In this document: positions 2,811 through 61,182 of the stretch, one piece after another
Layout of the letters: each line of letters opens with the position of its first letter
How positions within the stretch are numbered: position 1 is the first letter of the stretch
Virus record (IMG/VR): IMGVR_UViG_2529293038_000017
Location: 1 to 64,000 of that record
Length of the DNA: 64,000 nucleotides
DNA from: a virus
Lineage: Duplodnaviria > Heunggongvirae > Uroviricota > Caudoviricetes
Strand: one strand, 5' to 3'
Made by a program: the position numbers and the translations under genes
Notes under the pieces: model-generated
What the model saw: only the letters and a program-made list of their open reading frames with translations
Told to the model about the DNA's origin: nothing
Databases searched by the model: none

Positions 2811-3452
2811 ATGGATAAGAAAATATGCGTTGTTTCGATGAGCGTCGGCAAACCGGCGTCAATGACTGCTGCATGGATCAACAACGAGCTGATAATGGCT
2901 GAGCGGACCAGCTACCCTGAACGCCGCCGCGATATGGAACTCCAGTTGCTGCGCGAATTGCGTGAGAAAGAGGAAAAAGGTTTTATCGTGCTGGTGGAAG
3001 AGGAAAACAGCTTTATTACCGGTAGAGTTGGCCAGCGTGTAAGGTTGCGCGATCCCTTCATGAACGGCAGGCCGGTACTAATTGAGGCAATGCAGATTTA
3101 TAAGGAGCTGGAACGCCAGAAAGCAATCAAGTTACCGCGCAAGGAATCCGGCAAATACATCCTCCACCAAAGCATCTTCGATTCCGAACACGACAAAAAA
3201 GGCGATGAATTTTTCAACATCAACTGGAGCGAAATAACGACAGAGCATGTTCTGACGTTACTATGTTGCTTTGCGACGGAATACAACAACGTTGCCAGCG
3301 CAGACTACATCAGGGCAATGGCTGGAGAAGTTGAGGCACGCCAGGAACCATCGTTACTAAGCCCTCTGATTAACATAATTCGCGGAACCCAAACGCTGGC
3401 ACAAAAACAGGTGCCTAAGGGAGTATTAACAGGAAAAGGAAATTATCTATAA
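2811..3452 (+). CDS. mat: Mat-like protein (213 aa)
   Basis: ATG at 2811 with AGGGG Shine-Dalgarno (the ORF-track start at 2784 lies inside the terminator). Position matches P1 mat downstream of ref; identity is from synteny only. Confidence 0.5.
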   Translation: MDKKICVVSMSVGKPASMTAAWINNELIMAERTSYPERRRDMELQLLRELREKEEKGFIVLVEEENSFITGRVGQRVRLRDPFMNGRPVLIEAMQIYKELERQKAIKLPRKESGKYILHQSIFDSEHDKKGDEFFNINWSEITTEHVLTLLCCFATEYNNVASADYIRAMAGEVEARQEPSLLSPLINIIRGTQTLAQKQVPKGVLTGKGNYL

Positions 3453-3508
3453 ACGTCAATGCATTAGGGTATACTTCTCCGTAGAACTATAAGTAAATGG
3501 AGTAAGTA

Positions 3509-4333
3509 ATGAGCGAGTATATAGAAATTGCCTATGCAGCAGCTACACATAGGCTGTGCTTTCTTACAGGCACTGGATTTTCAAAGGCTGTTTCTGATGA
3601 TAAAGCCCCAAGTTGGCAATCTTTATTGGAGCAACTGTGCGGTTTATTGAAGGATGGTGACTCACTCAAAGAGGAATTATTTCCTGATGGAAAAGCAAAA
3701 GACCTTAGCCTTGAAGAGGCTGCTCAGGTTATTGCACTAAAATTTATACTTTCGGGGAAAAATATTTACCAGGAGATTGAGAAAATCATAGCCTCAATCG
3801 AACTTGATCCATCAATTGAATATATTCAAGACTTTTTCAAAGAAAACACATTTAAAGTAATTACGACAAATTATGACAAGTTAGCAGAAAAACTGGCTGG
3901 AGAGAATCGAACGTGTACAATCACCCCCGGCCTGCCAATTCCAAAATATAATTGTGAGGTTAAAGTCTACCATGTTCACGGCTCTATAGACTCCCCATCA
4001 GATATGGTTGTTACTAGCGAGGATTATTTCAGATTTATAAATGGTAATTCTTACTTTTCAAATAAACTAAGCACAGTTCTACATGAAAACACTATTGTTA
4101 TTCTTGGCTATTCTCTAAGTGACGCGAACCTCAAGGCGATTATAAATGAATATAAGGTATTTTCACGGGACAACGTAATGTCCTCCAATATTTTCCTTAT
4201 TTCCCGAGGGAAACTATTGCAACCTATTAAAGATTACTATTTTTCCTGCTTTGGGATTAGGGTTATAGATAAAACAGAGGTGTCTGATTTCTTTAGAAAA
4301 CTTAACAAGAAAATTCCAGAAGCAAAAAAATAA
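3509..4333 (+). CDS. SIR2-like (sirtuin-fold, predicted NAD+-consuming) protein, 274 aa; candidate defence effector
   Basis: GGAG Shine-Dalgarno 6 nt before the ATG. Motifs in SIR2-family order: FLTGTGFSKA (Rossmann GxGxS), VITTNYD (catalytic Asn), VYHVHGS (catalytic His). AT-rich relative to flanks. No database search run. Confidence 0.75.
   Translation: MSEYIEIAYAAATHRLCFLTGTGFSKAVSDDKAPSWQSLLEQLCGLLKDGDSLKEELFPDGKAKDLSLEEAAQVIALKFILSGKNIYQEIEKIIASIELDPSIEYIQDFFKENTFKVITTNYDKLAEKLAGENRTCTITPGLPIPKYNCEVKVYHVHGSIDSPSDMVVTSEDYFRFINGNSYFSNKLSTVLHENTIVILGYSLSDANLKAIINEYKVFSRDNVMSSNIFLISRGKLLQPIKDYYFSCFGIRVIDKTEVSDFFRKLNKKIPEAKK
4324..4333 (+). promoter_or_regulatory. Candidate -1 frameshift site: slippery heptamer A_AAA_AAA followed immediately by the TAA stop
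   Basis: Codons GCA AAA AAA TAA; the -1 frame (AAA AAA ATA AAA GAC AAA TTG...) is open into the 4342..4812 ORF. Confidence 0.3.
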
Positions 4334-4341
4334 AAGACAAA

Positions 4342-4812
4342 TTGAGGCACTCAATCAAATCGGTAATAAAAAACGGAAGAGAGTATAAAATAGAGTTCTT
4401 GAAGTTAGAGGATTCTTTTTATCATATCATTTCCTCCATTTCATCATCTGGATATAGCTGGAATGATGAAAAGGTATTAAATGTTTTTTGTGATATAATA
4501 GATAAAAAAATAGATCTTACTAAAGAGTCTGGCGCATGGGAGCAGTATGAACACCTGGCAAAATGGCTTATTTATTTCGGTAGTTTATTTGAAGTAAAAG
4601 GAACCAACTTTGAGAAAAAATACATACATGCGGTTGAACACTCAATGACTTATATGAATAAACCTTACGAAACAGGCTACTCATGGCGAGCATATCTAGC
4701 CTGGAAAACAAAATGGCCTTCACTGACAGCATCTAACCGCTCTCTTATTAAGAGTAAGATGGAAGAAATCCCGCTACAACAGATTCACGATATTATATCT
4801 AAGTTTATATAG
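4342..4812 (+). CDS. Hypothetical partner protein (156 aa), or C-terminal domain of a frameshift fusion with the SIR2-like protein
   Basis: ORF directly downstream of the SIR2-like gene in the -1 frame. The only start is a TTG with no Shine-Dalgarno. AT-rich; no recognisable motifs. Confidence 0.55.
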   Translation: MRHSIKSVIKNGREYKIEFLKLEDSFYHIISSISSSGYSWNDEKVLNVFCDIIDKKIDLTKESGAWEQYEHLAKWLIYFGSLFEVKGTNFEKKYIHAVEHSMTYMNKPYETGYSWRAYLAWKTKWPSLTASNRSLIKSKMEEIPLQQIHDIISKFI

Positions 4813-4820
4813 TATATTTA

Positions 4821-4849
4821 TCTCCGGCCTAATCTCCCTAGGCCGGAGA
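4821..4849. terminator. Strong 11-bp stem hairpin separating the SIR2 cassette from lxc
   Basis: TCTCCGGCCTA (4821-4831) pairs with TAGGCCGGAGA (4839-4849) around a 7-nt loop. Confidence 0.55.
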
Positions 4850-4853
4850 GTTC

Positions 4854-5102
4854 TTAATCAGCATTCAGGAGCAATGCGTTATCTATGATGATCTGCTCCC
4901 ATTCCTCGAATGCCCGGTCGCGGACGCCCTGGGGAACGCTGTTAGTTTTGAAATCGACGACCGTCCGCCATTTCCCGTCCGGACGGTACATGCGCAGAGC
5001 TTTACTTCCCCCTTCCCTGCGCACCTCAACGTTATGCTTGTCAGCAAACTCTTGTAATGCTCGTAGCGTCCCATGCTTTACTGTGTAGTATCGCTTTTTC
5101 AA
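4854..5102 (-). CDS. lxc: Lxc/Bof-like C1 co-repressor modulator (82 aa)
   Basis: 82-aa ORF directly downstream of ulx, overlapping it by 4 bp. Size and synteny match P1 lxc (from memory). Confidence 0.6.
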   Translation of the reverse strand: MKKRYYTVKHGTLRALQEFADKHNVEVRREGGSKALRMYRPDGKWRTVVDFKTNSVPQGVRDRAFEEWEQIIIDNALLLNAD

Positions 5103-5539
5103 GTTTTCTCTCCAGCCTGTGCCAAGGCTTCAACTTCCAAATCGTAAGACTCAAACTCATAGTCCTGGTCGTCAACTTCTTCAGGCACTGGCAGTAAATG
5201 CCAGGCTGAGTATATCTGACCATTATCAAAACGCTCCTGGCTGTAGAGCGTCGCGGCTATGAGTGTTAGCGCCGGGCGGTCATAACGGTAAATTTTGCGA
5301 ACGTCACGGTCAACGAGACGACCGAAATTACCATAACCGCGCTCCAGTAATAATTTTTTAATTTCCGGCCAGTATGGACCATAGCTGCGGTACAGGCGGG
5401 GATTTTTCAGTAATCGCCCGCGTAGCCCTGACAGGAAGAAATCAACGTATTCGTCTTCTGTCTTTCCTAACAACGCTGTACGGAGTACCGCCTCAAGATA
5501 TGTTTTATTCGGTTTTATTGTATCAGATAGTGTGGCCAT
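5099..5539 (-). CDS. ulx: Ulx-like protein (146 aa)
   Basis: Lies between darB and lxc in the same orientation, as P1 ulx does. Confidence 0.6.
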   Translation of the reverse strand: MATLSDTIKPNKTYLEAVLRTALLGKTEDEYVDFFLSGLRGRLLKNPRLYRSYGPYWPEIKKLLLERGYGNFGRLVDRDVRKIYRYDRPALTLIAATLYSQERFDNGQIYSAWHLLPVPEEVDDQDYEFESYDLEVEALAQAGEKT

Positions 5540-5572: not shown

Positions 5573-8500
5573 TTATGCGTATTGTTGGATGACGGCCAGA
5601 ACGTCCGCCACGTTGTGTTTTGTCTCGATAATCCACCAGTTACCCGGGAAATCGCTGTTCTTCGCCTTCGCTGGCAGCCAGCGAGCGCCGAATTTCGCCT
5701 TGATTGCGTCTTTCGCACGGAAAAGAACGCCTTTCATGCCTGAGGCTTCCTGAAGCCCAAATACCTCGCCAGCGGCGAATTTTGGTGCGTACATCATCTT
5801 CAGGTCGGCGGTGGATACGCGATAATTCAGACCAAGAGACTGAGCTATGCTGGTGGCATCACCCTGTATTGATGATAACTCTTCTTGTTTCTCGTTTCTG
5901 GCGGCAATCTCTTCCTCCGTGATGTTGCCAAGGGCCAGGTTTATCCGATCAGCGTCGGCCTGTTTCTCTTCATCGGTGCGCCCGGCAAGAACCGTGTTAA
6001 TTCTCTGCAATATCTCCACATGATTCTTGCGCATGCTGAGCAATTCCGGCGTAACCTCGTTAAGATCCACCAGCCCAAGGATGGCAAGGTCGGAAAACAT
6101 TGATACCAGGTTGTAGGTCATGCGATAGCTGAGTTGACCATAGGCTGATGGCAACTGCACCGCATCCATTTTATAGGCATCCATAAATTTAGAGCCGTCG
6201 TTTACGACATCCGCAATTGCCGGTGTGATTTTTCCTGTGGTGGCGGCCTCCCTGATTGCTGTTACCCACGATTGAGTCAGCGCGGAAACTGCATGATTCA
6301 GATTGGCTTTGCGTTCTGCTGCAATGCGCGCGCTTGCAGCGTCCATTGACTGTTTGATCTCGTCTTTATTGCTGTAAATGCCAATGGTGCCAAACTGTGC
6401 TGTGGTGATCTCATAATCTGACGCCCGGAACTCATTGGTACCGAAAATAGCATTGGTGACTTCAAGTTCAGAATCCCCGTTACGAGTAGCCCCCTGGCTT
6501 GTTTTTTCCGGCATTCTGGCGATCGCATCCGCTATTTTCTCCTGAATTGCTTCAGGGGATAGCGTATCTCCGTATGACGCGATTACATCGCCATAATTGG
6601 AGCCAAACAGTTCAACCAGGAATGTTTCTGCCGAACGGATCTGGCGGTTATTCCCTTCCGACATCATACCAAGCACCCATTTTGCAATTGACGACTTCAG
6701 CGCGCCGTCACGGCGATCCGGGTAAACCGCATGCTTCAGTGGGTCCGTATAGGTACCAACAAAATCGATGCTATAGCCTGACTCTGTAGTCTGAACGCCG
6801 TATGAGTCAGTGATTTTGATCATGCCGCGCTGCTGGAAACGGTAGAAATCGTCACAGGAAATGATGTCGTTAATCCCGGCGATGGAGACGCCACCACTGA
6901 TTTTCTGCATAACAGCATCTTCATCGGGAGTTACATCAACCTGTTTATCCAGCGTCTTCACATCCCAGTTACCCGATTTGGTGCCTTTGAAGGTAAAGAT
7001 GATCTCCACGTCTGCGCGCTGGCTGTCGAAGTCCAGCGACTTAATGCGAACGATATCACCGGCACAATCGTAGTATTGGCCTACACGCCATGAGCGATCG
7101 CCGATAACAAGGAACTCATTCGCATGGTTAACCAGATCAGGATCAACATCCAGAATGCCTTTATTTATTGCATCCTCCACCAGCGGGCGCAGGCGTTTGA
7201 TATCCGTCGCGGCCTTCTGAGTACGGTTCAATAATTTCTCATAGCGGGAGATGGCTTGAGAGATATTAGCCTTGCGCTGAATGGCGCTTTTCAACGACGC
7301 GCGATACTGTGCTAACAACGTACGGTCTGTGTGATGGACGCTACCCCAGCGGGCTTTCCAGTCTGCGTTATCAGCTGCTTTGGCCATTACCGCCTGTTTG
7401 AATTTAGCTACCTCGGCGGTGGTCTTTTCAAGTTCCGCTTTGTTTCGCTCTAATTCAGCGGTAAGTACCTCCACATCCTCGCCAGCTGCGTGCTGCGCCT
7501 TGATGTAGTTCTGAAGGTCGATAGTAGCCTGTTCTTTCTGGCGAGCGCGTTGCGCGGCTTTCGCCTTATCCATTTGAACCTGCATCATTGCCAGACGTTC
7601 GCCATCATCCTTAGCGGTATACATCTGCATTTCGATCATATCGTTGGCGTCGGCGTTCTCCATTTCTGACTTATCTGAACGGAGGATATCGGAGATCCAG
7701 CCTGCTTTACGCTTCAGCGTCTTCAGTCGGTATTCATCGAAAGAACCCTTGCCGCAGTAGTAATGAACGCGAACGCTTGCACGGTTGGAGCCAACTCGGG
7801 CACCGCGACCGTTACGCTGTGCGATACTGGCTGGTGTCCATGGCAACGTCAGATGATGGATGTCAGTCGTTCCTCGATGCAGGTTGATACCCACCTCTGC
7901 CTTTTTGTTGCAGATGATGATCGGAGTCCGGCCCTCCTGGAAGTCTGCTGCAATCTTTTCCAGACCGCCCAACGACATTTCATTTTGCTGCGCGATATAG
8001 GCGTCATACAGAGCCATTTGCTCGTTGTATTTCGCTATCTGTGCATCTGTTGGTTCATCAGGTAACTCTTTCGGCGGTTTAACCGCTTTCAGTTTCTTAC
8101 CGGTTTTACCTGCCTCGGCAACCGTCTGAGCATTCAGGATCCCCACCTTTGAAGGTTCAAGGTTAAGAGCATTGCAGATAATGCGCTTGAGCTTCTGGTG
8201 CTGCGTTTTTTCGTCCGTGAAGATGATTTGCTTACCTTCCGGGAAAAACTCCTTCAGCGTGGCGATCAGCTTCGCGTATTTGGGTGTAACGGGGTGAGTT
8301 ACGGTCTGTTCGTCAATGCCAAACCTGGCCAGGCGCTTATTCACTTCCTGCTCGAACGCTTCCGGAACCTGCAACTGAATAAACTCGCCCTTATCTATCA
8401 GGGAGTATTGCGATTGCTGCGTGATTGAATCATCACTGTCGTCGTCTTCGCTGGTGGCTTGTTTAGGCAAACTGTCCGCCAGCTGCTGCACCGCATCGGC

Positions 8501-11500
8501 GTACTCCGGCAGGAAACGATAGGTGATCCGGCGATAGTACAGGTCCATGTCAGTACATACGCGGTCCATATCCCTGATTATTGAGAAGATCGGACGGGCT
8601 TTCTCGTGCTCAATCACGCCGTCTTCATTAACCGAGGTCGTTACGCCATTGTTGGCTTTTGCTGCCGCTTCCGCCTGCTGACGTAATTCTTCATACGCCG
8701 CCAGTTGTTCTTCAGTAAGTGGTGCATCCTGCTGGTGTTCGTCCAGTTCCGGGATCTCCACGGTATCCTTAACGTCTTCCGCCGTTTTAAGCGTTGTCCA
8801 GCGATGGAATATGCCGCGCAGCGCATCAAGGTTTTCAAAGCCCACCAGCGCCATTTTTTCTTCAACTTCACCGCTGATTTTCTGTACCGTTTCCAGCCTG
8901 GTCTTGCCGAAGAATTTAACGAAGTCATCAGGACCGTAGATCCCCATCTTCTGCCAGTATTCCTTCGGCAGAACATGAGAAAGCATGTTGTATGCATCGA
9001 TCGGGGTGTTAACGACTGGCGTTGCAGTCAGGAGAACCGGTCCGCGCCCGCCATTCTTTTTCATCAGGTACGCGTTTTTGATTGCCATATCTCGCGCCGA
9101 TTGCGCCACCGCGCTGGTGGGCAGATAGGCCAGCTGTGACGATTCGCGACCATTTTTATAGCTATTGCGGTAGTTGTGGCCTTCGTCAGCAATCACGCTG
9201 TCGAAGCCCATATCCTCAAAGTACGGATACTTCTCTGCTTTTTCGGTACCGGTATCTGAATACTCCGACAATACCCGGCGACGCGCCGCCTCTTTGCGAT
9301 GGGAATCGGAGTCCATTGCGCTGGCCACACGCCCGGCAGCAACGAAGTCATAAAGCATGTCTTGTGCATGCTCATCTACGGTGTCATCACGTAGCGGAAT
9401 GCGGGCGTATTGTTCTTTGGTAAACACGACTGCACGGTAATTTGAGTGCGGGATCGCGTTCATCCGCGCCGTGATAGTGGCTTCATCTGCCAGTTTTAGG
9501 GCATCGCGCATAACTGGAGTGCCATCTGCACCAACGACAGGTTTACCGTTCTCATCGAGCACCGGCACCTGGCGAATCTGATCGCCATCCATCAGCACAT
9601 CAAGACCGACGAACAGGTAGTTACTGAATGCCTCTTCACTCAGAAACTCTTTTGCTTCGTAATACCAGTTTTCCAGCACTGATTTAGGCACTACATACGC
9701 AGTACGGGTGGAACGACCGTTCTCATAGTTGAACGCCTCAAGCGCCAGCGCGGTCGTGGTTTTACCCAGCCCGGTACCGAAGCCCAGGATGCCGCGCCCA
9801 TCTTCGGACAGTCGGCGCACCTCGCTATTCTGGTAATCAAATGGCTGTCGCTTACCGCTTAATCCCTTCAACCCAAGCGGATCGCCAGAGTGTTCATACG
9901 GGATATTGCTATTGAACACATCGTTGTATTTGGCAACCAGCTCATCGTAGCGATCGTGCGTCTTGATCCACTTATTGAACTGGTCCTCAAGCAGTGCCAT
10001 CTGCTCACGATAGCCGTTCGCCGTCGCGCTATCTTTGCCACCGATACGCGCACCATTGAGATACTTTTCCAGCTGTGCCGGGAACCCGGTCGCGTTTTCT
10101 CCTGATTTACGGTCCCACTCGTAGCGGATCTCGCCTGTTTCTTTATCCTTGCGCTGGACGACACCGTATCGGTGCCCGACGAACAGGCCATCACCACCGT
10201 GATAGGTGTCAGAAACCATTTCGTCGCCTTCCAGCTGCACTGACTGCACATAGCGCAGATCCGGATAGCCGTTTTCCTGCAAAAACTCCAGAATGACGGA
10301 ACGGTCGAACCAACGGCTATTGAGCTTAAAGCGGATATTCTCTGCTGGCGTCTTGATGCGCTTCTCTTCGATCGCTGCCAGCTGATTAAGGACGTTGTTC
10401 TTTACTGGACCGTCGGGGAGCGTGGCGAGGAATTCCTGTTTTGGAGCCACTATCTCGTTAATGTCGCCGCTGGTGGCGCGGGCGAACGGAACAATCCCGC
10501 CATACGGTGAAACCGCAATGCCAGGGGTGCTGGCCAATAAATTAAGCAACTCGTCATCACTGGCTGGCAGTTCGCCGGTAAACGCAAGGCGGAAATCATC
10601 GAGCTGGATTGGATCGCGAGTGAGATCACTGTAGAGATAACGCAGGGTGTCCTGATAGCTGGTGGAGTCATAACTGGCGCTGGAATCATGCGTAACCAGC
10701 TTTCCTGTCAGCTCGTCAGAAATAGTACCATCCAGCTTAATTGCACCACGGAAAGCAAACCAGGCGCGCGCACCGCTCCCCGATAATTTCGCTATCGGAC
10801 CGCGACCGGGGTTACCAAAACGGTCAATCTCTGCCTGCAAACGGGATACCAGGGAAAGGCGCTGCTGTTCGATTTGTTCAGCACTATGCCCGGCGGCCTT
10901 CATATCCTGATATTCAATTAACATCCGGCCAATCATCGCCCCGCGATACAAGCGTTCACGGTATTTTTCAGGCTGGCTGTTAATCCAGTCCACCAGCTGC
11001 ACCATATCGTCGCTGATTGATGTGGTGTACTTATCGCGGACATTTGCCATCTGGGTAAATGTCATACCGAGACGGCCTTCTGTTGTAGTCAGGTTACGCT
11101 GAAGAGCCTCCCAGCTGTCCGCGCCATAACTGGCAACATCAATCTTCAGCTCCTTCCCGGCATCAGATTCAATCCAGCGACCACCAGCATATTTTTGCCA
11201 TACGCCATTAATCAGGCGCATTTCCCCTTCATCAACAACGTCTGCGGTCGGTGACGGTTCAGCCATATCGAACAAAGACCAGTCGATACGACTTTCGAAA
11301 CGATGAATCAGCTTCGCTTTAAGAGCCTGGTTATCAATCTGCCCGTCGGCACGAACCTCAATACGCCCCTGGAATCCCTTCTCCTGGGTGCCATGAACAA
11401 AACGGCGGCCGTCCTTTTCAAACCACTTGCCAGAAATAAACGTTGGCCAAAGCACATTTGCCGATTCAAGAGTGCCTTCATCCACCAGGGGGATTTTCTC

Positions 11501-12340
11501 AGCCATCTCCGCCGGATGTTTGCGCATCAGCACCACGTCAACGACCGTACTGGTCCCGTTTGCGTCAAAAGTACCGGTAGGCAAGCGGTGGGCACCAAGA
11601 AATTCAGCTTTCCGTGATAGGCGCAGGCGTAACCGCTTCATGTTTGAACCTGAAACAATGGACGGCGGCACAATCACACACATGAATCCGCCTGGCTTTA
11701 TCTTGTCCAGCATGCGGAGCATGAAGTAAGACCCCATATCCGTTTCTTCTGCGTAAGGCTTATCGATGTTGCGTGTGTTATCACGACCGCCGAACGGAAC
11801 GTTACCCACAACATGGTCGAATGAATCGTTAGGCGTGCTTACAGCCAGTTGTTCGAACGGGGAAATCTGTACGCTGTCTTCCGGATGTAACAGCTGGTTT
11901 ATACGACCGGAAACACTGCTGATCTCAGTCGCGGTCATCACCGTACCAACCGGTTTTGTCTCATTAAAAACGCCGGTGCCCGCCGATGGTTCCAGAGTGT
12001 TACCTACGTCCGCGCCATAGAGCTTCATGATCTCCCAGACGCCTTCAGCGATAGGCTTTGGTGTGTAATATTCGGAGACGGACCCGCCAATGCCGCCTTC
12101 ACCAGTGTACCCGGCCAGGATCTGGCGCTGTTCATCTGTCAGTGTCGCGCCGTCCACCAGCGAATTAAGCAAATCTATCGCCTTCTGATTCGCCTCCCGG
12201 CGCAGCCGGTCATAGCTTTTGCCTTCCACCTTTTCCACGCCGTATCTAATCGGCGCTCGATGAGATGTTATTGCCCTAATGTATTTCAATATTTCGCTGA
12301 CACTTGAACAGCGAAACAACCCCATAGATAGCTTGTTCAT
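5573..12340 (-). CDS. darB: DarB antirestriction protein (2255 aa) with N6-adenine methyltransferase and DExH helicase domains
   Basis: Length identical to P1 DarB as remembered. MTase motif HVVGNVPFGG, Walker A GFGTGLGKT, DExH box VIADEGHNYRN. AAGGA Shine-Dalgarno 8 nt before the ATG. Confidence 0.9.
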   Translation of the reverse strand: MNKLSMGLFRCSSVSEILKYIRAITSHRAPIRYGVEKVEGKSYDRLRREANQKAIDLLNSLVDGATLTDEQRQILAGYTGEGGIGGSVSEYYTPKPIAEGVWEIMKLYGADVGNTLEPSAGTGVFNETKPVGTVMTATEISSVSGRINQLLHPEDSVQISPFEQLAVSTPNDSFDHVVGNVPFGGRDNTRNIDKPYAEETDMGSYFMLRMLDKIKPGGFMCVIVPPSIVSGSNMKRLRLRLSRKAEFLGAHRLPTGTFDANGTSTVVDVVLMRKHPAEMAEKIPLVDEGTLESANVLWPTFISGKWFEKDGRRFVHGTQEKGFQGRIEVRADGQIDNQALKAKLIHRFESRIDWSLFDMAEPSPTADVVDEGEMRLINGVWQKYAGGRWIESDAGKELKIDVASYGADSWEALQRNLTTTEGRLGMTFTQMANVRDKYTTSISDDMVQLVDWINSQPEKYRERLYRGAMIGRMLIEYQDMKAAGHSAEQIEQQRLSLVSRLQAEIDRFGNPGRGPIAKLSGSGARAWFAFRGAIKLDGTISDELTGKLVTHDSSASYDSTSYQDTLRYLYSDLTRDPIQLDDFRLAFTGELPASDDELLNLLASTPGIAVSPYGGIVPFARATSGDINEIVAPKQEFLATLPDGPVKNNVLNQLAAIEEKRIKTPAENIRFKLNSRWFDRSVILEFLQENGYPDLRYVQSVQLEGDEMVSDTYHGGDGLFVGHRYGVVQRKDKETGEIRYEWDRKSGENATGFPAQLEKYLNGARIGGKDSATANGYREQMALLEDQFNKWIKTHDRYDELVAKYNDVFNSNIPYEHSGDPLGLKGLSGKRQPFDYQNSEVRRLSEDGRGILGFGTGLGKTTTALALEAFNYENGRSTRTAYVVPKSVLENWYYEAKEFLSEEAFSNYLFVGLDVLMDGDQIRQVPVLDENGKPVVGADGTPVMRDALKLADEATITARMNAIPHSNYRAVVFTKEQYARIPLRDDTVDEHAQDMLYDFVAAGRVASAMDSDSHRKEAARRRVLSEYSDTGTEKAEKYPYFEDMGFDSVIADEGHNYRNSYKNGRESSQLAYLPTSAVAQSARDMAIKNAYLMKKNGGRGPVLLTATPVVNTPIDAYNMLSHVLPKEYWQKMGIYGPDDFVKFFGKTRLETVQKISGEVEEKMALVGFENLDALRGIFHRWTTLKTAEDVKDTVEIPELDEHQQDAPLTEEQLAAYEELRQQAEAAAKANNGVTTSVNEDGVIEHEKARPIFSIIRDMDRVCTDMDLYYRRITYRFLPEYADAVQQLADSLPKQATSEDDDSDDSITQQSQYSLIDKGEFIQLQVPEAFEQEVNKRLARFGIDEQTVTHPVTPKYAKLIATLKEFFPEGKQIIFTDEKTQHQKLKRIICNALNLEPSKVGILNAQTVAEAGKTGKKLKAVKPPKELPDEPTDAQIAKYNEQMALYDAYIAQQNEMSLGGLEKIAADFQEGRTPIIICNKKAEVGINLHRGTTDIHHLTLPWTPASIAQRNGRGARVGSNRASVRVHYYCGKGSFDEYRLKTLKRKAGWISDILRSDKSEMENADANDMIEMQMYTAKDDGERLAMMQVQMDKAKAAQRARQKEQATIDLQNYIKAQHAAGEDVEVLTAELERNKAELEKTTAEVAKFKQAVMAKAADNADWKARWGSVHHTDRTLLAQYRASLKSAIQRKANISQAISRYEKLLNRTQKAATDIKRLRPLVEDAINKGILDVDPDLVNHANEFLVIGDRSWRVGQYYDCAGDIVRIKSLDFDSQRADVEIIFTFKGTKSGNWDVKTLDKQVDVTPDEDAVMQKISGGVSIAGINDIISCDDFYRFQQRGMIKITDSYGVQTTESGYSIDFVGTYTDPLKHAVYPDRRDGALKSSIAKWVLGMMSEGNNRQIRSAETFLVELFGSNYGDVIASYGDTLSPEAIQEKIADAIARMPEKTSQGATRNGDSELEVTNAIFGTNEFRASDYEITTAQFGTIGIYSNKDEIKQSMDAASARIAAERKANLNHAVSALTQSWVTAIREAATTGKITPAIADVVNDGSKFMDAYKMDAVQLPSAYGQLSYRMTYNLVSMFSDLAILGLVDLNEVTPELLSMRKNHVEILQRINTVLAGRTDEEKQADADRINLALGNITEEEIAARNEKQEELSSIQGDATSIAQSLGLNYRVSTADLKMMYAPKFAAGEVFGLQEASGMKGVLFRAKDAIKAKFGARWLPAKAKNSDFPGNWWIIETKHNVADVLAVIQQYA

Positions 12341-33374: not shown

Positions 33375-33730
33375 AGCACCACGTCCTGTGTGATAGTTAT
33401 ATCCCTGATACGAATGGATATTTTCAACTTATCAAAAGCATCTCCCTCGGCTACTGACAAGCCAGAAATCGGTATGTCAGGTAAATCTACCGTCAGTTTT
33501 TGCAACAGCATTGCCTCAACCGCAATTTGAACATGCGACAAGTTGGTCGGTTCGTGTTTAAACTGCGGTAAAACATTGCCCCATGACGGATCTCCGTATA
33601 CCTCACCCTGATAAGTGTTTAGCCACTCATATAAACGAGCGCCCCAGGCCTCCTCCTGGGACTCATACGTTTTTACGCCGGATAACTCCAGCGTCAGCAA
33701 AGGATCAATTTCGTTATTGTTGGCCATCAA
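33371..33730 (-). CDS. Small baseplate protein (119 aa), gpW/gp25-like
   Basis: Size and position immediately downstream of the Sit-like gene. Confidence 0.5.
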   Translation of the reverse strand: MMANNNEIDPLLTLELSGVKTYESQEEAWGARLYEWLNTYQGEVYGDPSWGNVLPQFKHEPTNLSHVQIAVEAMLLQKLTVDLPDIPISGLSVAEGDAFDKLKISIRIRDITITQDVVL

Positions 33731-36717
33731 TCAACTCTCGCGTAGTCATTCATCAACGGATCATCAATTGACAGTGGTACCGTGCGCATAACGCCCGGCT
33801 GAGGCGTGCTGACCTTTACGACAGTTCCCTGGCCTTTCGCCGAGTCTTTGGTGTGCTCTTCAATCCTGGCAAGCAATGAGGTCATCTGCGCAAACAGCCG
33901 CTTCGTTTCACCATCAAGTGAAACGGTATTATCAGCCAACTGCATTGTCGGCTTGGCACCGGAACCGCCAAGGTCACTAATAACCTGCCCGTCTATCTGC
34001 ATACGACCGGTTGGTTGCTGCAAATCGTTGGCGGCAGTCGTCACCTGGGACGTGGAGGCTGGTTCAGGCGCATTATTTTTCCGCATCCCCGGCGAGTTGC
34101 GGAGTTTATCGAATAGTCCATCAATCCCCATTTGTGCGCCGAGATGGTCAAAGTAACTTGAGTTGTTGGCCACCGGACGCGCCTCTTCAACTGGCATCGG
34201 AGTATCAACATACACATTGCCAGCTGCTGTTGCGGTCCCCTTCTCTCGTGCACGTTCTTCTAGCGTTCCCTGAACGACTTCCCGACGCATCCCCCGGCCA
34301 TTCATGAATTTGTTGACCAGATCGTTAACGCCAACAGCATTGCCGATTTTGTCGACCAGACCGCCTTTCTCAAACGGGCTATCACCAGGGGTAAACGCCA
34401 GGCCAGTATACTGATCGATAACAGCGTTATCAGGCAGTGGTCCCCTCACTCCATATTGCGCCCCACCCTGTGCTCCTGCTCCAGGTGTATAGATTTCACC
34501 ACCTAAATAGCGAGCACGATGAGTATTGACCTTGATCGCGTACTCACGGTTTTCTTTCGATAAGTCACCGGTGCCTTTTTTCCACTTATTAATAGTGCCA
34601 AACCCAGCATTATATGCAGTGATGGCCTCGTTTAAGTCTCCATTGGCTTGCTTAAGATACTTGCTCATGAGAAGAGCCGCAGCTTCTGCCGATTTCACAG
34701 GATCAAACGATTCACCTTCAGCTAAGCCAGTCTCTTCACGAGCAATCCCCGTGAACTGAAACATCCCCAGAGCACCGGTTTGGGATTTTGCATACGGATT
34801 ACCACCAGATTCAGTTGCAGCAATCGCGTAAAGAGTGCCTTCTGGAAGACCGTATTTATTCTCTAGTTCGGCAAAATACGGAGCCAACTTATCGAGATTT
34901 GCCTTACCTTCAGCGCCAAGACTTCCGACTTTTACATCTAAGTTGCCATTGTTGTAAGTATCCGCAGCTTTCTGAATGTCATTCCTGGTGCCAGTGGTAT
35001 TAAGCGACGATGATGACGAGCTATTTTGACCAATAGCTTTATCAATTTTCTGCAACGCGCTATTGCCCGTTTCTACGGCATTTGCATTGATAATCTGATT
35101 GGCAGTTTGTTTAACTGTTTTATTGCTATCTTTCGCTGTGTCCAGTGCCGCATTTATCACGCGGGTAGCAATATTACTCTGTTTGGCATCGGATTCAGTT
35201 TTAGAATCAGACGTCTCCTGGTGGCTATTAACCGGAGCTTTTAACTCCGGAGTGATTTCTTTCGCATTAGCCTCGCCGATCGGATTGGGTATTTTTGATA
35301 CAATCATTGCCGCAGGGGTATTTTTAACGGCATCAACCGCTGCATCTAATGCTTTACCAGGTAAATTTTTAACCCCATCCCAAATATTACCAGCCGCCTC
35401 TTTAATGTGTTTCCCTGGGTTCTTAATGAAATCAATTGCACTATCAATTGCATCACTGAAAACCTGTTTCAGGTTATCAACAGTAAAGAAGTCTTTGATG
35501 GCATCCAGCTTTTCAAGCAGCTTATTAGATGTATCGCTAAACCATGCTGAAACAGCATCACCAATCTTTGCTGTGTAATCTTCGAACTTGGTAGAAATGG
35601 TGTCGCCAAGGTTAGAAATATATGTTTCTAAGTTGGTAATCCCACTATCAATGGCCTGGGCAATACTTTCCGTCGAAAATGATTGCAACATATTGCCGAT
35701 ATCCTCAAATCCAAGTGATTTGAGAACCTCACCAATGGCGCTGCTAATACCAGATACCAGTCCCCCCATATCAAGAACATTGGCTAACGTATAAGCGGCT
35801 TTTTGCTGGAATGATGGCTCTTGTCCTGATTTAAGCCCAAACGCTCGACGTTGCGCTTCTGTATCATTCCAACCGGTTACCGCATCATAAATACCTCCAG
35901 CCACTGTGCCGACTAAGGGAATTGCGCGTAACGCCCCTTTACCAACTGCCTTTAATCCAAATTTACCTGCTGCCCGGGCAGCCAAATCTCCACCTTCATG
36001 GGCGATAGTCTTCTTGCCACCACCGCGTAGCATTCCTACAAGTTTCTTTGCCCCCAGAGCGCCAAAAGCGAGTGCTCCAGCTTTTTTCAGCATGCCACGC
36101 CCCATTAACAACGACGCGACGCCACCGGCCCCCTTCCCTAACAGGCTAAATAGTTTGGACAGCAAGCCGCCCTTCTTTTTCCCGGTGTTTTTGGCTATCT
36201 GATCAAGGGCGCTGAGAATCTTGTCATTGCCCTCTTTAATTTCGCTGGTCTGCTCCTGAAGTTCCTGAACCGTCCGTTTTTGGGTGTTAACCTGAACGAC
36301 ATCGGCACTATTTTGCGATTTACGCCTAAAAAAACCTTTTCTACGGCTGTTATCGTCATTGCCACGAATCACATCGGCAATAGACTTTCTGGCGCCATTA
36401 AGCGATCCACCAACTTCTTTTGATATCCCGCCAAGCTCCTTCCCTGCTGCCCACAATGGACCAGCAACGGCATAACCTAACGCATCGACGGCACGAGTCT
36501 CTGAAGGGTTACCTATGCCTTCAGCTACTTTTGACAGTTTTTTTAATAAACCTGATTCAGCATTTAGACGCTCATCATCCTCTTTGCGCCTGGCCTTTTC
36601 AGCACGTTCAGCACGGGCATCTTCCGCTGCGGCCTTACTCCCTGACTTTCCAATAAAACGACCACGCGCATCGCGTTGGTTTTGGCTTTTTTGCGCACCG
36701 CCTTTTTGATCGAACAT
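33727..36717 (-). CDS. sit: Sit-like tape-measure / structural injection transglycosylase (996 aa as annotated)
   Basis: Lytic transglycosylase motif (AIAATESGGNPYAKSQTGALGMFQF), Gly/Ala/Lys-rich low-complexity regions, no Shine-Dalgarno at the annotated ATG. Confidence 0.75.
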   Translation of the reverse strand: MFDQKGGAQKSQNQRDARGRFIGKSGSKAAAEDARAERAEKARRKEDDERLNAESGLLKKLSKVAEGIGNPSETRAVDALGYAVAGPLWAAGKELGGISKEVGGSLNGARKSIADVIRGNDDNSRRKGFFRRKSQNSADVVQVNTQKRTVQELQEQTSEIKEGNDKILSALDQIAKNTGKKKGGLLSKLFSLLGKGAGGVASLLMGRGMLKKAGALAFGALGAKKLVGMLRGGGKKTIAHEGGDLAARAAGKFGLKAVGKGALRAIPLVGTVAGGIYDAVTGWNDTEAQRRAFGLKSGQEPSFQQKAAYTLANVLDMGGLVSGISSAIGEVLKSLGFEDIGNMLQSFSTESIAQAIDSGITNLETYISNLGDTISTKFEDYTAKIGDAVSAWFSDTSNKLLEKLDAIKDFFTVDNLKQVFSDAIDSAIDFIKNPGKHIKEAAGNIWDGVKNLPGKALDAAVDAVKNTPAAMIVSKIPNPIGEANAKEITPELKAPVNSHQETSDSKTESDAKQSNIATRVINAALDTAKDSNKTVKQTANQIINANAVETGNSALQKIDKAIGQNSSSSSSLNTTGTRNDIQKAADTYNNGNLDVKVGSLGAEGKANLDKLAPYFAELENKYGLPEGTLYAIAATESGGNPYAKSQTGALGMFQFTGIAREETGLAEGESFDPVKSAEAAALLMSKYLKQANGDLNEAITAYNAGFGTINKWKKGTGDLSKENREYAIKVNTHRARYLGGEIYTPGAGAQGGAQYGVRGPLPDNAVIDQYTGLAFTPGDSPFEKGGLVDKIGNAVGVNDLVNKFMNGRGMRREVVQGTLEERAREKGTATAAGNVYVDTPMPVEEARPVANNSSYFDHLGAQMGIDGLFDKLRNSPGMRKNNAPEPASTSQVTTAANDLQQPTGRMQIDGQVISDLGGSGAKPTMQLADNTVSLDGETKRLFAQMTSLLARIEEHTKDSAKGQGTVVKVSTPQPGVMRTVPLSIDDPLMNDYARVD

Positions 36718-36755
36718 TTCGCGAGCGTGTTCGGCTGCTTCGGTCCGTTGTGCCT

Positions 36756-37415
36756 TTATATCCTCTGATATAGCCTTCCTGCGTCTTTTTTACCCTTTGG
36801 TGTAGTTGATTTGGCCTGCTGTTCCTGTTGAGCAATGCCCTCCTGAACTACACGAGAAACGTCCCCTAAATTAAGCCGTTTCATTGCGTCAACAATAGGG
36901 TCTACTGATGGCGCATTGGCCACAAAGTCTGGCCGGGAATTTTCGATTGTTCGATTTAATGCCGACACACTGCGAGATACTGGGTCAACCGTTGCAACGC
37001 GTTCCCCTTTCAAATCACGAGCGAGTTTGACCGTTTCTAACCGCTGTGCTTTAACATCCTCTGTTATTGCCTCTCTTCGTCTATTTGGGGGATTGTGCGC
37101 TGTTGGTGCAGCCTGCTGTTCACGGTTAGTGACTTTGTCCTCCCGTATACGAGAAACGTCCCCTAAATTAAGCCGTTTCATTGCGTCAACAATAGAGTCC
37201 ACTGATGGCACATTGGTCACAAAGTCAGGACGTGAATTTTCGATTGTGCGATTTAATGCCGACACACTGCGAGAGACAGGATCAACAGTTGCAACTCGTT
37301 CCCCTTTCAAATCTTCAACAGCTTCCCGAATACCTGCAAGCTCTTCCAGCTCTTTCGCGCTGGCGGTTTCAACTGTCCTTATAACATCGTCAATATTGGC
37401 GTTTTTTCTTTCCAT
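36756..37415 (-). CDS. Repeat-containing protein (219 aa) upstream of sit; possibly the N-terminal part of a frameshift-split sit gene
   Basis: Carries two copies of an approximately 80-aa repeat. Ends 38 bp upstream of the sit ATG in another frame; an A6 run lies at its 3' end. Confidence 0.55.
   Translation of the reverse strand: MERKNANIDDVIRTVETASAKELEELAGIREAVEDLKGERVATVDPVSRSVSALNRTIENSRPDFVTNVPSVDSIVDAMKRLNLGDVSRIREDKVTNREQQAAPTAHNPPNRRREAITEDVKAQRLETVKLARDLKGERVATVDPVSRSVSALNRTIENSRPDFVANAPSVDPIVDAMKRLNLGDVSRVVQEGIAQQEQQAKSTTPKGKKDAGRLYQRI
36810..37400. repeat. Tandem duplication, two copies of about 298 bp
   Basis: Copy cores 36851-37016 and 37149-37313 are about 90% identical. Confidence 0.8.
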
Positions 37416-40815: not shown

Positions 40816-40910
40816 TATAACCTCACCTGCCTTATAACTCATTTAGGGTACATATTTTCGCCTTTAAAAAAAGAGGTTATTAGATCCAATTGTGTATTTA
40901 TTAAGCATAT

Positions 40911-42497: not shown

Positions 42498-42504
42498 CAA
42501 AAGA

Positions 42505-42535
42505 AAAAACCTGCCAGCAAACTGGCAGGTTTCTG
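42505..42535. terminator. Rho-independent terminator after ant
   Basis: AACCTGCCAG-CAAA-CTGGCAGGTT stem at 42508-42531. Confidence 0.6.
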
Positions 42536-43490: not shown

Positions 43491-44069
43491 ATGCTGGCTA
43501 AAGTCACTTTCCTGAGCTGTATAACGATGAGCGATTTTACTTTTTCTGGCTATGAATTGGCCTGCTTTGTAACACACTCCGGTCTATCCCGTAGCGCCGG
43601 GCATATCCTGTCGCAATGTGCAAATCTCGCGGCAACAACCAGTGAATACTTCATTCACAAGCCTCACCGCCTGATCGCGGCAGAAACTGGTTATAGCCAA
43701 TCAACCGTCGTTCGTGCATTCCGTGAAGCTGTAAACAAAGGAATTCTGTCTGTAGAGATTGTTATCGGCGATCACCGTGAACGTCGCGCTAACCTGTACC
43801 GGTTTACACCATCCTTTTTGGCCTTCGCACAACAAGCCAAAAATGCGCTGATTGAAAGCAAATTAAAGATCTCTTCAGCGGCAACCAAGGTTAAAGCTGT
43901 TCTCGCTAAGACATTGGCTTTATTTAATTTTTTATCCACACCCCCATGTCAAAATGATACCCCCTCCCCCTGTCAGGATGACGTGGCAATAAAGAATAAG
44001 AAGTCACAAGTTAAAAAACAAAAAGATCAGTTTCCGGCGGTGCCGGAACGACCAGACTCAAAAAATTGA
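43491..44069 (+). CDS. RepL-like lytic replication protein candidate (192 aa) with HTH
   Basis: Follows kilA as repL does in P1; HTH-like segment YSQSTVVRAFREAVNKGIL. Shorter than I recall for P1 RepL, so the call is tentative. Confidence 0.45.
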   Translation: MLAKVTFLSCITMSDFTFSGYELACFVTHSGLSRSAGHILSQCANLAATTSEYFIHKPHRLIAAETGYSQSTVVRAFREAVNKGILSVEIVIGDHRERRANLYRFTPSFLAFAQQAKNALIESKLKISSAATKVKAVLAKTLALFNFLSTPPCQNDTPSPCQDDVAIKNKKSQVKKQKDQFPAVPERPDSKN

Positions 44070-44335
44070 CTTCATGGATCGCTGAGGCAAAAGCAAAGGC
44101 TGACAATCTGCGGTTATCCAAAAAACGCGCTCAAAAACATGAGTTCAAGCAGAAAGTAGAGGCGGCAGCGCGGAAATATGCTTACCTGAAGAACAAGCGT
44201 TCTCCTGATATTGGCGGGGTATCAAACTTCGATAATCTGCCGCATTGCATGACGGTAAACGAAGCTCTTAATGCGGTTTTAGCCAAAAATAAAGATAACG
44301 AACAATGGGGTATACCGGCAGGATTCAGAGGGTGA
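44066..44335 (+). CDS. Hypothetical basic protein (89 aa)
   Basis: ORF overlapping the upstream stop. Confidence 0.4.
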   Translation: MTSWIAEAKAKADNLRLSKKRAQKHEFKQKVEAAARKYAYLKNKRSPDIGGVSNFDNLPHCMTVNEALNAVLAKNKDNEQWGIPAGFRG

Positions 44336-60717: not shown

Positions 60718-61182
60718 CAGGGTTTTCGTCATGGTTAGCGACTTTGCGGCGGTTTAGAAACTGACCATTAAAGTAAATGCAAACGATGATCTGATGATGG
60801 TAGCGGCCTAAGAAGCCAGACGCCACGGGGTATGAGTCGTCCCCCGTCAAAAAATCGACCGCAGAGTGTCCCCGTCTGTGTATTAGGGAACGGGGAGGCA
60901 CAACAGGTAAGGGCGCTGGTGTGATTAACCAGATGAACGAGAAGGGGCCATCTGTTGGTCAGCGTCCTTTCCTGTTGCGTCTTCTTTTCAGCGTAACAGC
61001 GGTGCTTAACAGCACTTTGGGTACAGTTCCACGAATTTACGGGTATATCCCGTCATGCTGAAAGCGCTAATCACGCTGGAAGCCAGGGTTATGCATCCCC
61101 TGTTACCGAATTGCAGCCAGGGCGCGGTGCGCCGAAAAGCATACGGAGGTGGAAGCCCTCGCCGGAGACGTACCCGGCAAGT

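Follow-up and report, generated by a model that had tools for sequence, protein, structure and literature searches.

Does a slippery heptamer that is followed at once by a stop codon and by a second open frame represent a programmed frameshift site, or is it the trace of a single gene that has lost one base? The question is raised by a SIR2 gene in the window, the whole stretch of 64,000 nucleotides analysed here. The window is contig AIFB01000032.1 of assembly GCA_000249195.2. The first open reading frame (ORF1, 3509..4333, plus strand) starts at ATG 3509, which direct reading of the sequence places 6 nt downstream of a Shine-Dalgarno motif GGAG (3499..3502, plus strand), and encodes a complete SIR2 (PF13289) NADase-type domain. 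Its final codons are GCA (4322-4324), AAA, AAA and TAA (4331-4333), and the sequence from 4316 to 4350 is CCAGAAGCAAAAAAATAAAAGACAAATTGAGGCAC. The exact A7 tract (4324..4330, plus strand) is read in the 0 frame as A_AAA_AAA, whereas the −1 frame stays open between 4306 and 4812 and leads into the second frame, ORF2 (4342..4812). A slippery heptamer of the form X_XXY_YYZ in the 0 frame and an overlapping open −1 frame are thus both present. The only in-frame starts of ORF2 before 4500 are TTG 4342 and TTG 4399, both without a Shine-Dalgarno sequence. No terminator-like site was found between the ORF1 stop (4333) and the end of ORF2, and a terminator-like hairpin of 11 pairs, 7 of them G-C, lies at 4821..4849 (plus strand), beyond the 3′ end of the whole gene. 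The preliminary description of this locus, which had noted the terminal codons with the heptamer, the open −1 frame and the TTG starts of ORF2, was accurate on all of these points; the −1 fusion, which it had put at approximately 431 aa, is 434 aa long.

The A7 tract is by itself unremarkable because the 64-kb window holds 13 A/T runs of at least 7 bases. Furthermore, the conjunction of heptamer, stop codon and open −1 frame follows from the loss of one A from an A8 tract within a single gene, and a chance test is therefore inapplicable. In intact relatives the same position carries A8 (GCA AAA AAA ATA) within one CDS of 1305 nt that encodes the 434-aa protein WP_000006034.1. The site of the one-nucleotide deletion is identified by alignment to six relatives (L001-L006), by span lengths and by IMG/VR contigs. 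A8 was counted in about 60 of 65 complete E. coli records; among the 60 of these 65 that were listed, the span across the tract is 92 nt (A8) in 56, 91 nt in 3 and 93 nt in 1; the PLSDB plasmids give a similar picture (A8 in about 60 of 64), and all 13 IMG/VR contigs have A8. In the INPHARED phage collection no copy of the gene was found, and the lxc flank alone was matched. Close relatives mostly have A8, with a share of about 92-100% in the curated sets. When the window is aligned with the relative L001, the missing A is the sole difference inside the gene, and the translation of the window gene, either repaired or slipped by −1, is identical to WP_000006034.1. Read against the intact gene, ORF1 consists of codons 1-274 of 434 plus a premature TAA (4331..4333, plus strand), the bases of which straddle the codons ATA AAA in A8 alleles. 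Codons 275-434 and the stop follow in the −1 frame (4330..4812, plus strand) and encode the second half of a linker helix and a HEAT-like alpha-helical domain. The A7 sequence is A8 minus one A and most likely represents an ordinary frameshift allele of the kind that recurs in nature, rather than a programmed site that has evolved for frameshifting.

The SIR2 gene is cargo of a P1-like phage-plasmid. It lies between mat (maturation control; 2811..3452, plus strand; annotated from relatives, with coordinates transferred by alignment), which forms the left border of a variable slot, and lxc (modulator; 4854..5102, minus strand), which forms the right border and is followed by ulx (5099-5539) and darB (5573-12340, 2255 aa). 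Between mat and lxc, P1-like phage-plasmids have an exchange site for single-gene defence cargo. In addition to the SIR2 gene, the contents seen in this slot are a version of it with 59% identity, carried by another P1-like element, and a RelA/SpoT-family gene in phage SJ46, which we regard as CapRel. CapRelSJ46 (PMC9712102) is likewise a single polypeptide from the mat-lxc slot, in which a toxic enzyme at the N terminus is joined to a domain for regulation or sensing at the C terminus; however, it acts by tRNA pyrophosphorylation rather than by the NAD+ hydrolysis presumed here, and the two proteins have no sequence similarity.

The distant homologues are uniform on this point. The preliminary description had envisaged that homologues might consistently show two independent genes, and the comparison of cassettes instead returned single fused proteins in all 119 of those listed, with an identity of 54-61% and with 90-100% of the fused query covered. 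Nearly all of these 119 are 431-444 aa long (the exceptions are 405, 423 and 454-465 aa), and their hosts include Vibrio, Halomonas, Xenorhabdus, Klebsiella, Pseudomonas and other genera. The alignments are collinear through the junction, where K273-K274 is unconserved, and the A-run is missing in all three homologues checked at the DNA level. Because the distant homologues are unsplit, the in-frame gene is taken to be the ancestral state. In an AlphaFold (AF2) model of the protein (pLDDT 86, pTM 0.83), a helix of residues 258-289 spans residues 274/275 and joins a DSR2/ThsA-like SIR2 NADase domain to the HEAT-like helical domain; the model shows that the break falls inside one continuous predicted helix.

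It is highly improbable that this locus is an evolved programmed −1 frameshift of the dnaX/IS type that makes a 274-aa SIR2 protein and a 434-aa fusion in a set proportion. What speaks for such a site is the perfect 0-frame A_AAA_AAA with its adjoining stop, the open −1 frame and the absence of an independent ORF2 start, together with the fact that this motif is employed by IS elements (PMC4066793). The heptamer belongs to the same class as the dnaX/IS sites (A_AAA_AAG or A_AAA_AAA; PMC4066793, PMC5009743), is likewise read by tRNA-Lys, and likewise opens a −1 frame that lengthens the product. However, those sites possess stimulators, a Shine-Dalgarno-like sequence about 10 nt 5′ of the heptamer and/or a stable stem-loop or pseudoknot 5-9 nt 3′ of it, and none was found here. 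No GGAG/AGGA-like motif occurs within 20 nt 5′ of the heptamer. The 6-bp hairpin AUUGAG-GCA-CUCAAU (4341..4355, plus strand), 10 nt 3′ of the heptamer, is weak (dG −3.4 kcal/mol, z −1.0, with 31 of 200 shuffles folding equally well) and is no credible stimulator, the 90-nt fold 3′ of the heptamer is insignificant (z −0.96), and an Rfam scan of 3300-5200 at E values up to 1 gave no match and no frameshift element. Moreover, the heptamer and the two-frame arrangement are unconserved: the nearest relatives have A8 in frame, the distant homologues lack the run, and the 119 listed are single ORFs. The flanks are identical in A8 alleles, in which a shift is unnecessary. On the comparative data, programmed frameshifting is largely refuted. 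The central proposal of the preliminary description, a two-product system based on frameshifting at A_AAA_AAA, does not stand against the A8 majority, the unsplit homologues without the run and the lack of stimulators or of an Rfam element; its mechanistic remark remains sound as chemistry, in that ribosomes shift readily on A_AAA_AAA and the two ORFs would be joined by a −1 slip. The A7 site is a mutation scar rather than a signal. We attach very little probability to a functional split, in which ORF2 is made by termination-reinitiation at TTG 4342, 8 nt past the stop, and its product then targets the SIR2 domain in trans, as in a toxin-antitoxin pair whose members are unfused. The stop and TTG 4342 are close together, ORF2 is intact in all A7 loci sampled, and the N-terminal toxin and C-terminal antitoxin halves of CapRelSJ46, from the same P1 slot, do act in trans if expressed apart (PMC9712102). 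However, the TTG start is without a Shine-Dalgarno sequence, the cut falls midway in the predicted continuous helix, none of the 120 homologues listed is split, and gene callers recover only a 137-aa ORF that begins at TTG 4399 and is without the first part of the domain.

The remaining alternatives concern the history of the tract and not its decoding. In a homopolymer under-call, the strain would truly have A8 and the contig would be wrong by one base, and a suspicion of this kind is not without grounds. The same 64 kb contain two further gene-splitting one-base deletions at A/T runs, in repL (at about 44013) and in a sit-like ORF (36785), both of which are intact in three relatives. Indel errors are also evident in some public records whose tract length is unusual, such as pRM10386-1, where further single bases are missing from C and T runs of the SIR2 gene and darB. 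In addition, the flanking haplotype of the window is represented by its own record (L026) only, with no independent second record, and a look-up of the sit fragment found it in no other record. A one-off sequencing artefact was at first favoured for the three gene-splitting deletions and was dropped as the main explanation in view of the recurrence of the truncated SIR2 product and of the repL truncation in other assemblies. The exact 274-aa product occurs on at least 54 contigs of unrelated assemblies (82 index blocks), and Logan assemblies of public sequencing runs account for 6 of the 10 places shown for it; the runs behind the Logan contigs include ERR1204176, SRR21970586 and SRR19347594. 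Since the same truncation recurs in so many independent assemblies, a mutation is a better explanation than a sequencing error. Furthermore, the repL truncation of the window is found on 9 contigs from other assemblies, and some at least of the homopolymer differences of the window are therefore real; its sequence agrees with the relatives at about 120 other runs of at least 5 bases. We conclude that the A7 allele is probably real and that an under-call in this particular contig is improbable. The other alternative put forward in the preliminary description, a single gene split by a homopolymer-length error or by mutation, is thus borne out, with mutation as the favoured cause.

The A7 allele occurs on at least five mat/lxc flanking haplotypes and on two SIR2 alleles that are about 3% apart, where the flanks of A8 alleles are those sampled from RefSeq and PLSDB records. 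A9 shares a haplotype with three A7 loci, and a T-deletion variant also exists. Since A7 is found on at least five haplotypes and is accompanied by A9 and T-deletion variants, we infer that the A8 run is a hot spot for slipped-strand indels. Repeated mutation and the recombinational spread of one A7 segment are not cleanly separable here because the gene is almost invariant within allele 1. The A7 lineages differ at 4 variable sites, of which 3 are synonymous and 1 is D320N, and the ORF2 frame is still open in 10 of 10 sampled A7 loci, with no secondary lesions; such undecayed alleles fit a recent origin and also continued use. The locus also has one attribute of a contingency locus, namely, a coding simple-sequence tract with natural ON (A8) and OFF (A7, A9, T-deletion) lengths on several haplotypes. 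A phase-variable or "savior indel" switch, in which A8 is ON, A7 and A9 are OFF or very low, and selection exploits the trickle obtained from A7 by −1 slippage, is nevertheless unlikely. The ON and OFF lengths do coexist, with A7 widespread and A9 on an A7-bearing haplotype, the tract is kept in both of the divergent alleles, the OFF alleles are without further decay, and a −1 slip restores the exact wild-type protein. There are also precedents in A8/A7 switching with leaky decoding in phage resistance (PMC3441752) and in a savior indel with compensatory frameshifting (PMC5009743). However, a tract of eight is short by the standard of contingency loci in enterobacteria with proficient mismatch repair, the curated sets are about 92-100% A8, and the tract is missing from homologues at 55-60% identity, the same-slot P1 version included, so the family as a whole does not conserve it. 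The data are explained just as well by neutral losses that recur, and the haplotypes demonstrate no A7-to-A8 reversion. It is an unlikely extension that the A8 tract serves as a tuning device, with A7 removing most of a costly NADase and slippage leaving a trickle of wild-type protein, which would provide a low, non-toxic and revertible defence; the wide distribution of undecayed A7 alleles over several plasmid backbones would then be due to selection and not to neutral loss.

The reading that we prefer, and consider likely, is that the two ORFs are the halves of one 434-aa SIR2 gene, split by an A8-to-A7 change into a recurrent allele, possibly with adventitious leakiness. In the window one A of A8 is missing, which brings TAA into frame after codon 274 and leaves codons 275-434 in the −1 frame. 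The main product of A7 would then be a 274-aa SIR2 domain without the C-terminal domain, and the allele would be a recurrent natural loss-of-function, or strongly hypomorphic, version of a dispensable defence gene. A small full-length fraction may still be supplied, either by ribosomes that slip −1 on A_AAA_AAA before they reach the stop or through an extra A inserted by RNA polymerase; such a trickle would be leakiness and no evolved recoding signal. Low-level leaky rescue of the A7 allele appears plausible because the product of a −1 slip at A7 would be identical to the wild-type protein. In the literature, A_AAA_AAA without stimulators gives more than 0.1% frameshifting (PMC4066793), and C_AAA_AAA under overexpression gives 25-60% (PMC1851650). 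A close parallel comes from natural isolates of V. cholerae, in which the wbeL* tract and the manA A9 tracts (PMC3441752) affect phage-interaction genes through homopolymer frameshifts. In wbeL*, as here, a coding poly-A of 8 drops one A and the protein is cut short, and non-standard decoding preserves a slight residual function that is abolished by recoding of the tract (PMC3441752). However, wbeL is a receptor-biosynthesis gene, whereas the present gene is defence cargo of a plasmid-prophage.

The domain content of the intact protein is consistent with such a defence role. The N-terminal part matches Pfam SIR2_2 (PF13289; E 1.6e-23) and, over residues 7-257, the profile of the DSR2/ThsA SIR2 domain (E 1e-11), and Foldseek and profile matches include DSR2, ThsA and KomC. 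The catalytic motifs TTNYD (N121/D123) and VHG (H157) are kept invariant in the homologue alignments and align with the catalytic motifs of DSR2 and ThsA, with H157 opposite DSR2 H171. Membership in a named system is not obtained. The PADLOC matches cover the SIR2 part only, with PDC-S25, ThsA, LmuA and Dsr2 all within residues 20-253 and the ThsA matches restricted to residues 117-236, and the NCBIfam scores for Dsr2 (29.9 bits) and Dsr1 (21.6 bits) are far below the equivalog cut-off of 1400. The C-terminal half, a short module of HEAT-like type and about 150 aa, matches no known sensor in sequence and has nothing credible in Pfam (an OTU match at E 0.08 was disregarded) and no PADLOC match; thus, no ThsA-type sensor domain is detected. 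Thoeris ThsA has a TIR partner in addition to such a sensor domain, and neither was found here, where the C-terminal domain is HEAT-like and no TIR gene lies alongside, the neighbours being mat and lxc. The resemblance to DSR2 is closer, given that both proteins have a homologous SIR2 domain with the shared Asn/Asp/His motifs followed by a helical repeat region and occur in prophage or defence contexts; however, DSR2 has about 1000 aa or more, compared with 434 aa here. A literature search for WP_000006034 found no experimental paper. Judging from the domains and the location of the gene, we infer a role in defence. By analogy with these systems, the intact protein may act as an NAD+-depleting abortive-infection effector, in which the C-terminal helical repeat would sense or regulate.

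The locus should accordingly be annotated as one frameshifted 434-aa gene for a SIR2-plus-helical-repeat protein, and neither as a SIR2 gene with an orphan ORF nor as a recoding system. The RefSeq annotation pipeline PGAP already labels the equivalent A7, A9 and T-deletion versions "frameshifted". The SIR2-HEAT protein is a widespread, uncharacterised and compact relative of the DSR2-type NADase effectors. Its A8 run is a probable natural inactivation hot spot, and the exact restoration of the product of A7 that a −1 slip would bring makes this gene a simple system for leaky expression of a defence gene.

The first open reading frame of the SIR2 locus (ORF1, 3509..4333) has an ATG start, preceded by the Shine-Dalgarno sequence GGAG at 3499-3502 on the plus strand, and encodes 274 aa with the terminal codons GCA AAA AAA TAA. 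The run of adenines at its end is exactly seven residues long (A7, 4324-4330) and is read A_AAA_AAA in the 0 frame, and the -1 frame has no stop from 4306 through to 4812, where the downstream frame (ORF2) ends. Direct reading of the sequence thus bears out the slippery heptamer, the adjoining stop and the open -1 frame of the preliminary description. Its remark that the second ORF has only TTG starts also holds: before 4500, the only in-frame starts of the -1 ORF are TTG 4342 and TTG 4399, neither with a Shine-Dalgarno sequence. The open -1 frame allows the fusion product that had been proposed, with a predicted length of 434 aa and not approximately 431 aa.

Related plasmids carry at the same place a single CDS of 1305 nt that encodes 434 aa (WP_000006034.1) and is annotated as 'SIR2 family NAD-dependent protein deacylase'. 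Inside the SIR2 gene, the sole difference between the window and the compared locus L001 is A7 versus A8, and the window translated with a -1 slip is exactly WP_000006034.1. Because the relatives with A8 are unsplit and the slip product is this protein, we consider, on these sequence comparisons, that the alternative reading offered previously is right, namely, that ORF1 and ORF2 are one gene split by a mutation in the homopolymer. Sixty of the 65 complete E. coli records with a 91-nt stretch were listed; among these 60, the span is 92 nt (A8) in 56, 91 nt in three and 93 nt in one. The four odd-length records have A7 in two (pRM10386-1 and p12579_1), A9 in one and a loss of the T after the run in one. 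All four bear the PGAP label 'frameshifted'; public annotation thus already handles equivalent alleles in this way. The same picture is seen in PLSDB (A7 in three of 64 records), and A8 is present in all 13 IMG/VR contigs that include the flanks. The RefSeq record of pRM10386-1 (NZ_CP028125.1) also lacks single bases of C and T runs within the SIR2 gene (window 3924, 4484), and one base in darB (6490), that are present in the window and the other relatives. These losses look like sequencing indel errors; therefore, odd tract lengths in single records should be read with caution.

The matches listed for the fused protein comprise a cluster representative of 434 aa that is identical to it (827 member sequences) and 119 more homologues with 54-61% identity and 90-100% coverage of the query, from Vibrio, Halomonas, Xenorhabdus, Pseudoalteromonas, Marinobacter, Klebsiella, Pantoea, Pseudomonas, Delftia and other genera. 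Almost all have lengths of 431-444 aa (exceptions: 405, 423 and 454-465 aa), and conservation is strong in the C-terminal part (W344, Q346, W353, S379, G390, W393, N410 and R411). A comparison with homologous cassettes might have revealed two genes; instead, the homologues listed are single proteins, mostly of ~434 aa, collinear through the ORF1/ORF2 junction. Lys-Lys 273-274 is not conserved in these alignments, and at the DNA level the A run is absent from the junction in three diverged versions, including a 59%-identical gene of another P1-like element. Neither the heptamer nor the two-frame arrangement is therefore conserved in the family.

No SD-like sequence was found upstream of the heptamer. 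Downstream of it, the sole structure is a 6-bp hairpin (dG -3.4 kcal/mol, z -1.0), and the fold of the 90 nt that follow has a z of -0.96. The locus matches no Rfam family, and the only strong terminator-like hairpin (4821-4849) follows ORF2. A8 alleles, which need no shift, also have these flanks. With no stimulator, no conserved arrangement and relatives that are in frame at A8, the programmed -1 frameshift suggested earlier is not supported. The A7 allele plausibly still makes the full-length protein at a low level, by analogy with precedents from other sequences. In E. coli, A_AAA_AAA without stimulators yields more than 0.1% -1 frameshifting against a background of ~0.05% (PMC4066793), and C_AAA_AAA in an overexpression vector yields 25-60% (PMC1851650). 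Runs of AAAAAAA also favour slippage during transcription (PMC4066793, PMC5009743), and the A8-to-A7 allele of V. cholerae wbeL has a residual function that is lost on recoding of the tract (PMC3441752). Reinitiation at TTG 4342 could conceivably yield ORF2 as a separate product, but this is unlikely given the poor start and a cut predicted to fall inside a helix.

Comparison with three relatives shows that the window lacks a single base at each of three A/T runs and that each loss splits an otherwise intact gene (SIR2, repL and a sit-like gene); an assembly error in this one contig might produce such a pattern. However, at least 54 contigs (82 index blocks) carry the exact 274-aa truncated product; the ten places shown divide into six Logan assemblies built from public sequencing runs and four NCBI draft assemblies, and the downstream ORF is called separately in all ten. 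The repL gene (Pfam Phage_P1_RepL; 43491-44335, plus strand), which is unbroken (282 codons) in three related plasmids, is divided into ORFs of 192 aa and 89 aa by a one-base deletion in an A run near 44013. Its 192-aa truncated product is also found on nine contigs from other assemblies, so the deletion is a real lineage mutation; the split suggests that lytic replication of the plasmid-prophage may be impaired. These two sets of contigs indicate that the A7 allele exists in nature, and approximately 120 other runs of at least five bases agree with the relatives. We therefore regard an error in this contig as improbable, with a small residual chance because no independent record shares its flanking haplotype. 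The third break, next to a T run at 36785, divides the sit-like 1230-codon ORF (33727-37415, minus strand; annotated in relatives as a transglycosylase SLT domain protein) into ORFs of 996 aa and 219 aa; because the 219-aa fragment is in no other record, error and private mutation cannot be told apart here. Four A runs in intergenic or unassigned sequence (40866-40872, 42504-42509, 60849-60854 and 1814-1820) are one base shorter than in at least one relative, with no effect on long ORFs seen.

In a 2.7-kb alignment of 21 loci for haplotype comparison, the mat/lxc flanks that accompany A7 fall into at least five different haplotypes; A7 is also found with either variant of a synonymous site within the SIR2 gene and on a second SIR2 allele diverged by ~3%. 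The haplotype of the A9 record is common to three A7 loci. Together, the A7, A9 and T-deletion variants indicate an indel hot spot. Because the gene is nearly invariant within allele 1, recombinational spread of one A7 segment is not fully separable from repeated mutation. The ten sampled A7 loci have four variable sites, three of them synonymous, and no second lesion; such undecayed loci fit a recent origin and discriminate no further. We favour the view that the A8/A7 tract is merely a hot spot of decay and doubt that it serves as a switch or attenuator.

AlphaFold gives a confident model of the fused protein (114 aligned sequences; pLDDT 86, pTM 0.83), in which a SIR2 domain occupies residues 1-257, the C-terminal domain is all-helical and helix 258-289 is continuous over the break at 274/275. 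The SIR2 domain matches DSR2, ThsA and KomC (Foldseek E ~1e-11; profile E 1e-11, residues 7-257). It has invariant TTNYD and VHG motifs, and its H157 pairs in the alignment with the catalytic H171 of DSR2. With scores of 29.9 bits for DSR2 and 21.6 bits for DSR1, where the cut-offs are 1400, the protein is an equivalog of neither. Thoeris is likewise ruled out, there being no TIR neighbour and the ThsA matches being confined to the SIR2 part.

The window belongs to a P1-like phage-plasmid with the gene order cre (422-1453), cra, ref, mat (2811-3452), the SIR2 locus, lxc (4854-5102, minus strand), ulx and darB (5573-12340, 2255 aa). By the coordinates of loci L026 and L034, it corresponds to positions 1-64000 of contig AIFB01000032.1 (assembly GCA_000249195.2). 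P1-like elements swap single-gene cargo at the mat-lxc interval (window 3453-4853). The interval contains the present SIR2-HEAT gene here, the SIR2 version of 59% identity in another P1-like contig (L018 5001-6308) and, in phage SJ46 (L020 4842-5963), a RelA/SpoT-family gene that we take to be CapRelSJ46, a characterised defence of SJ46 in which toxin and antitoxin are fused (PMC9712102). In E. coli chromosomes, a homologue of 436 aa with 56% identity follows closely after a prophage integrase, beside the narP-ccm region (L014-L017 5001-6311), which is another mobile, single-gene context for the SIR2-HEAT family. The content of the slot in SJ46 and the homologue adjoining the integrase thus support a defence role by location, and we infer that the 434-aa protein is a compact, single-gene, NAD+-depleting defence candidate.
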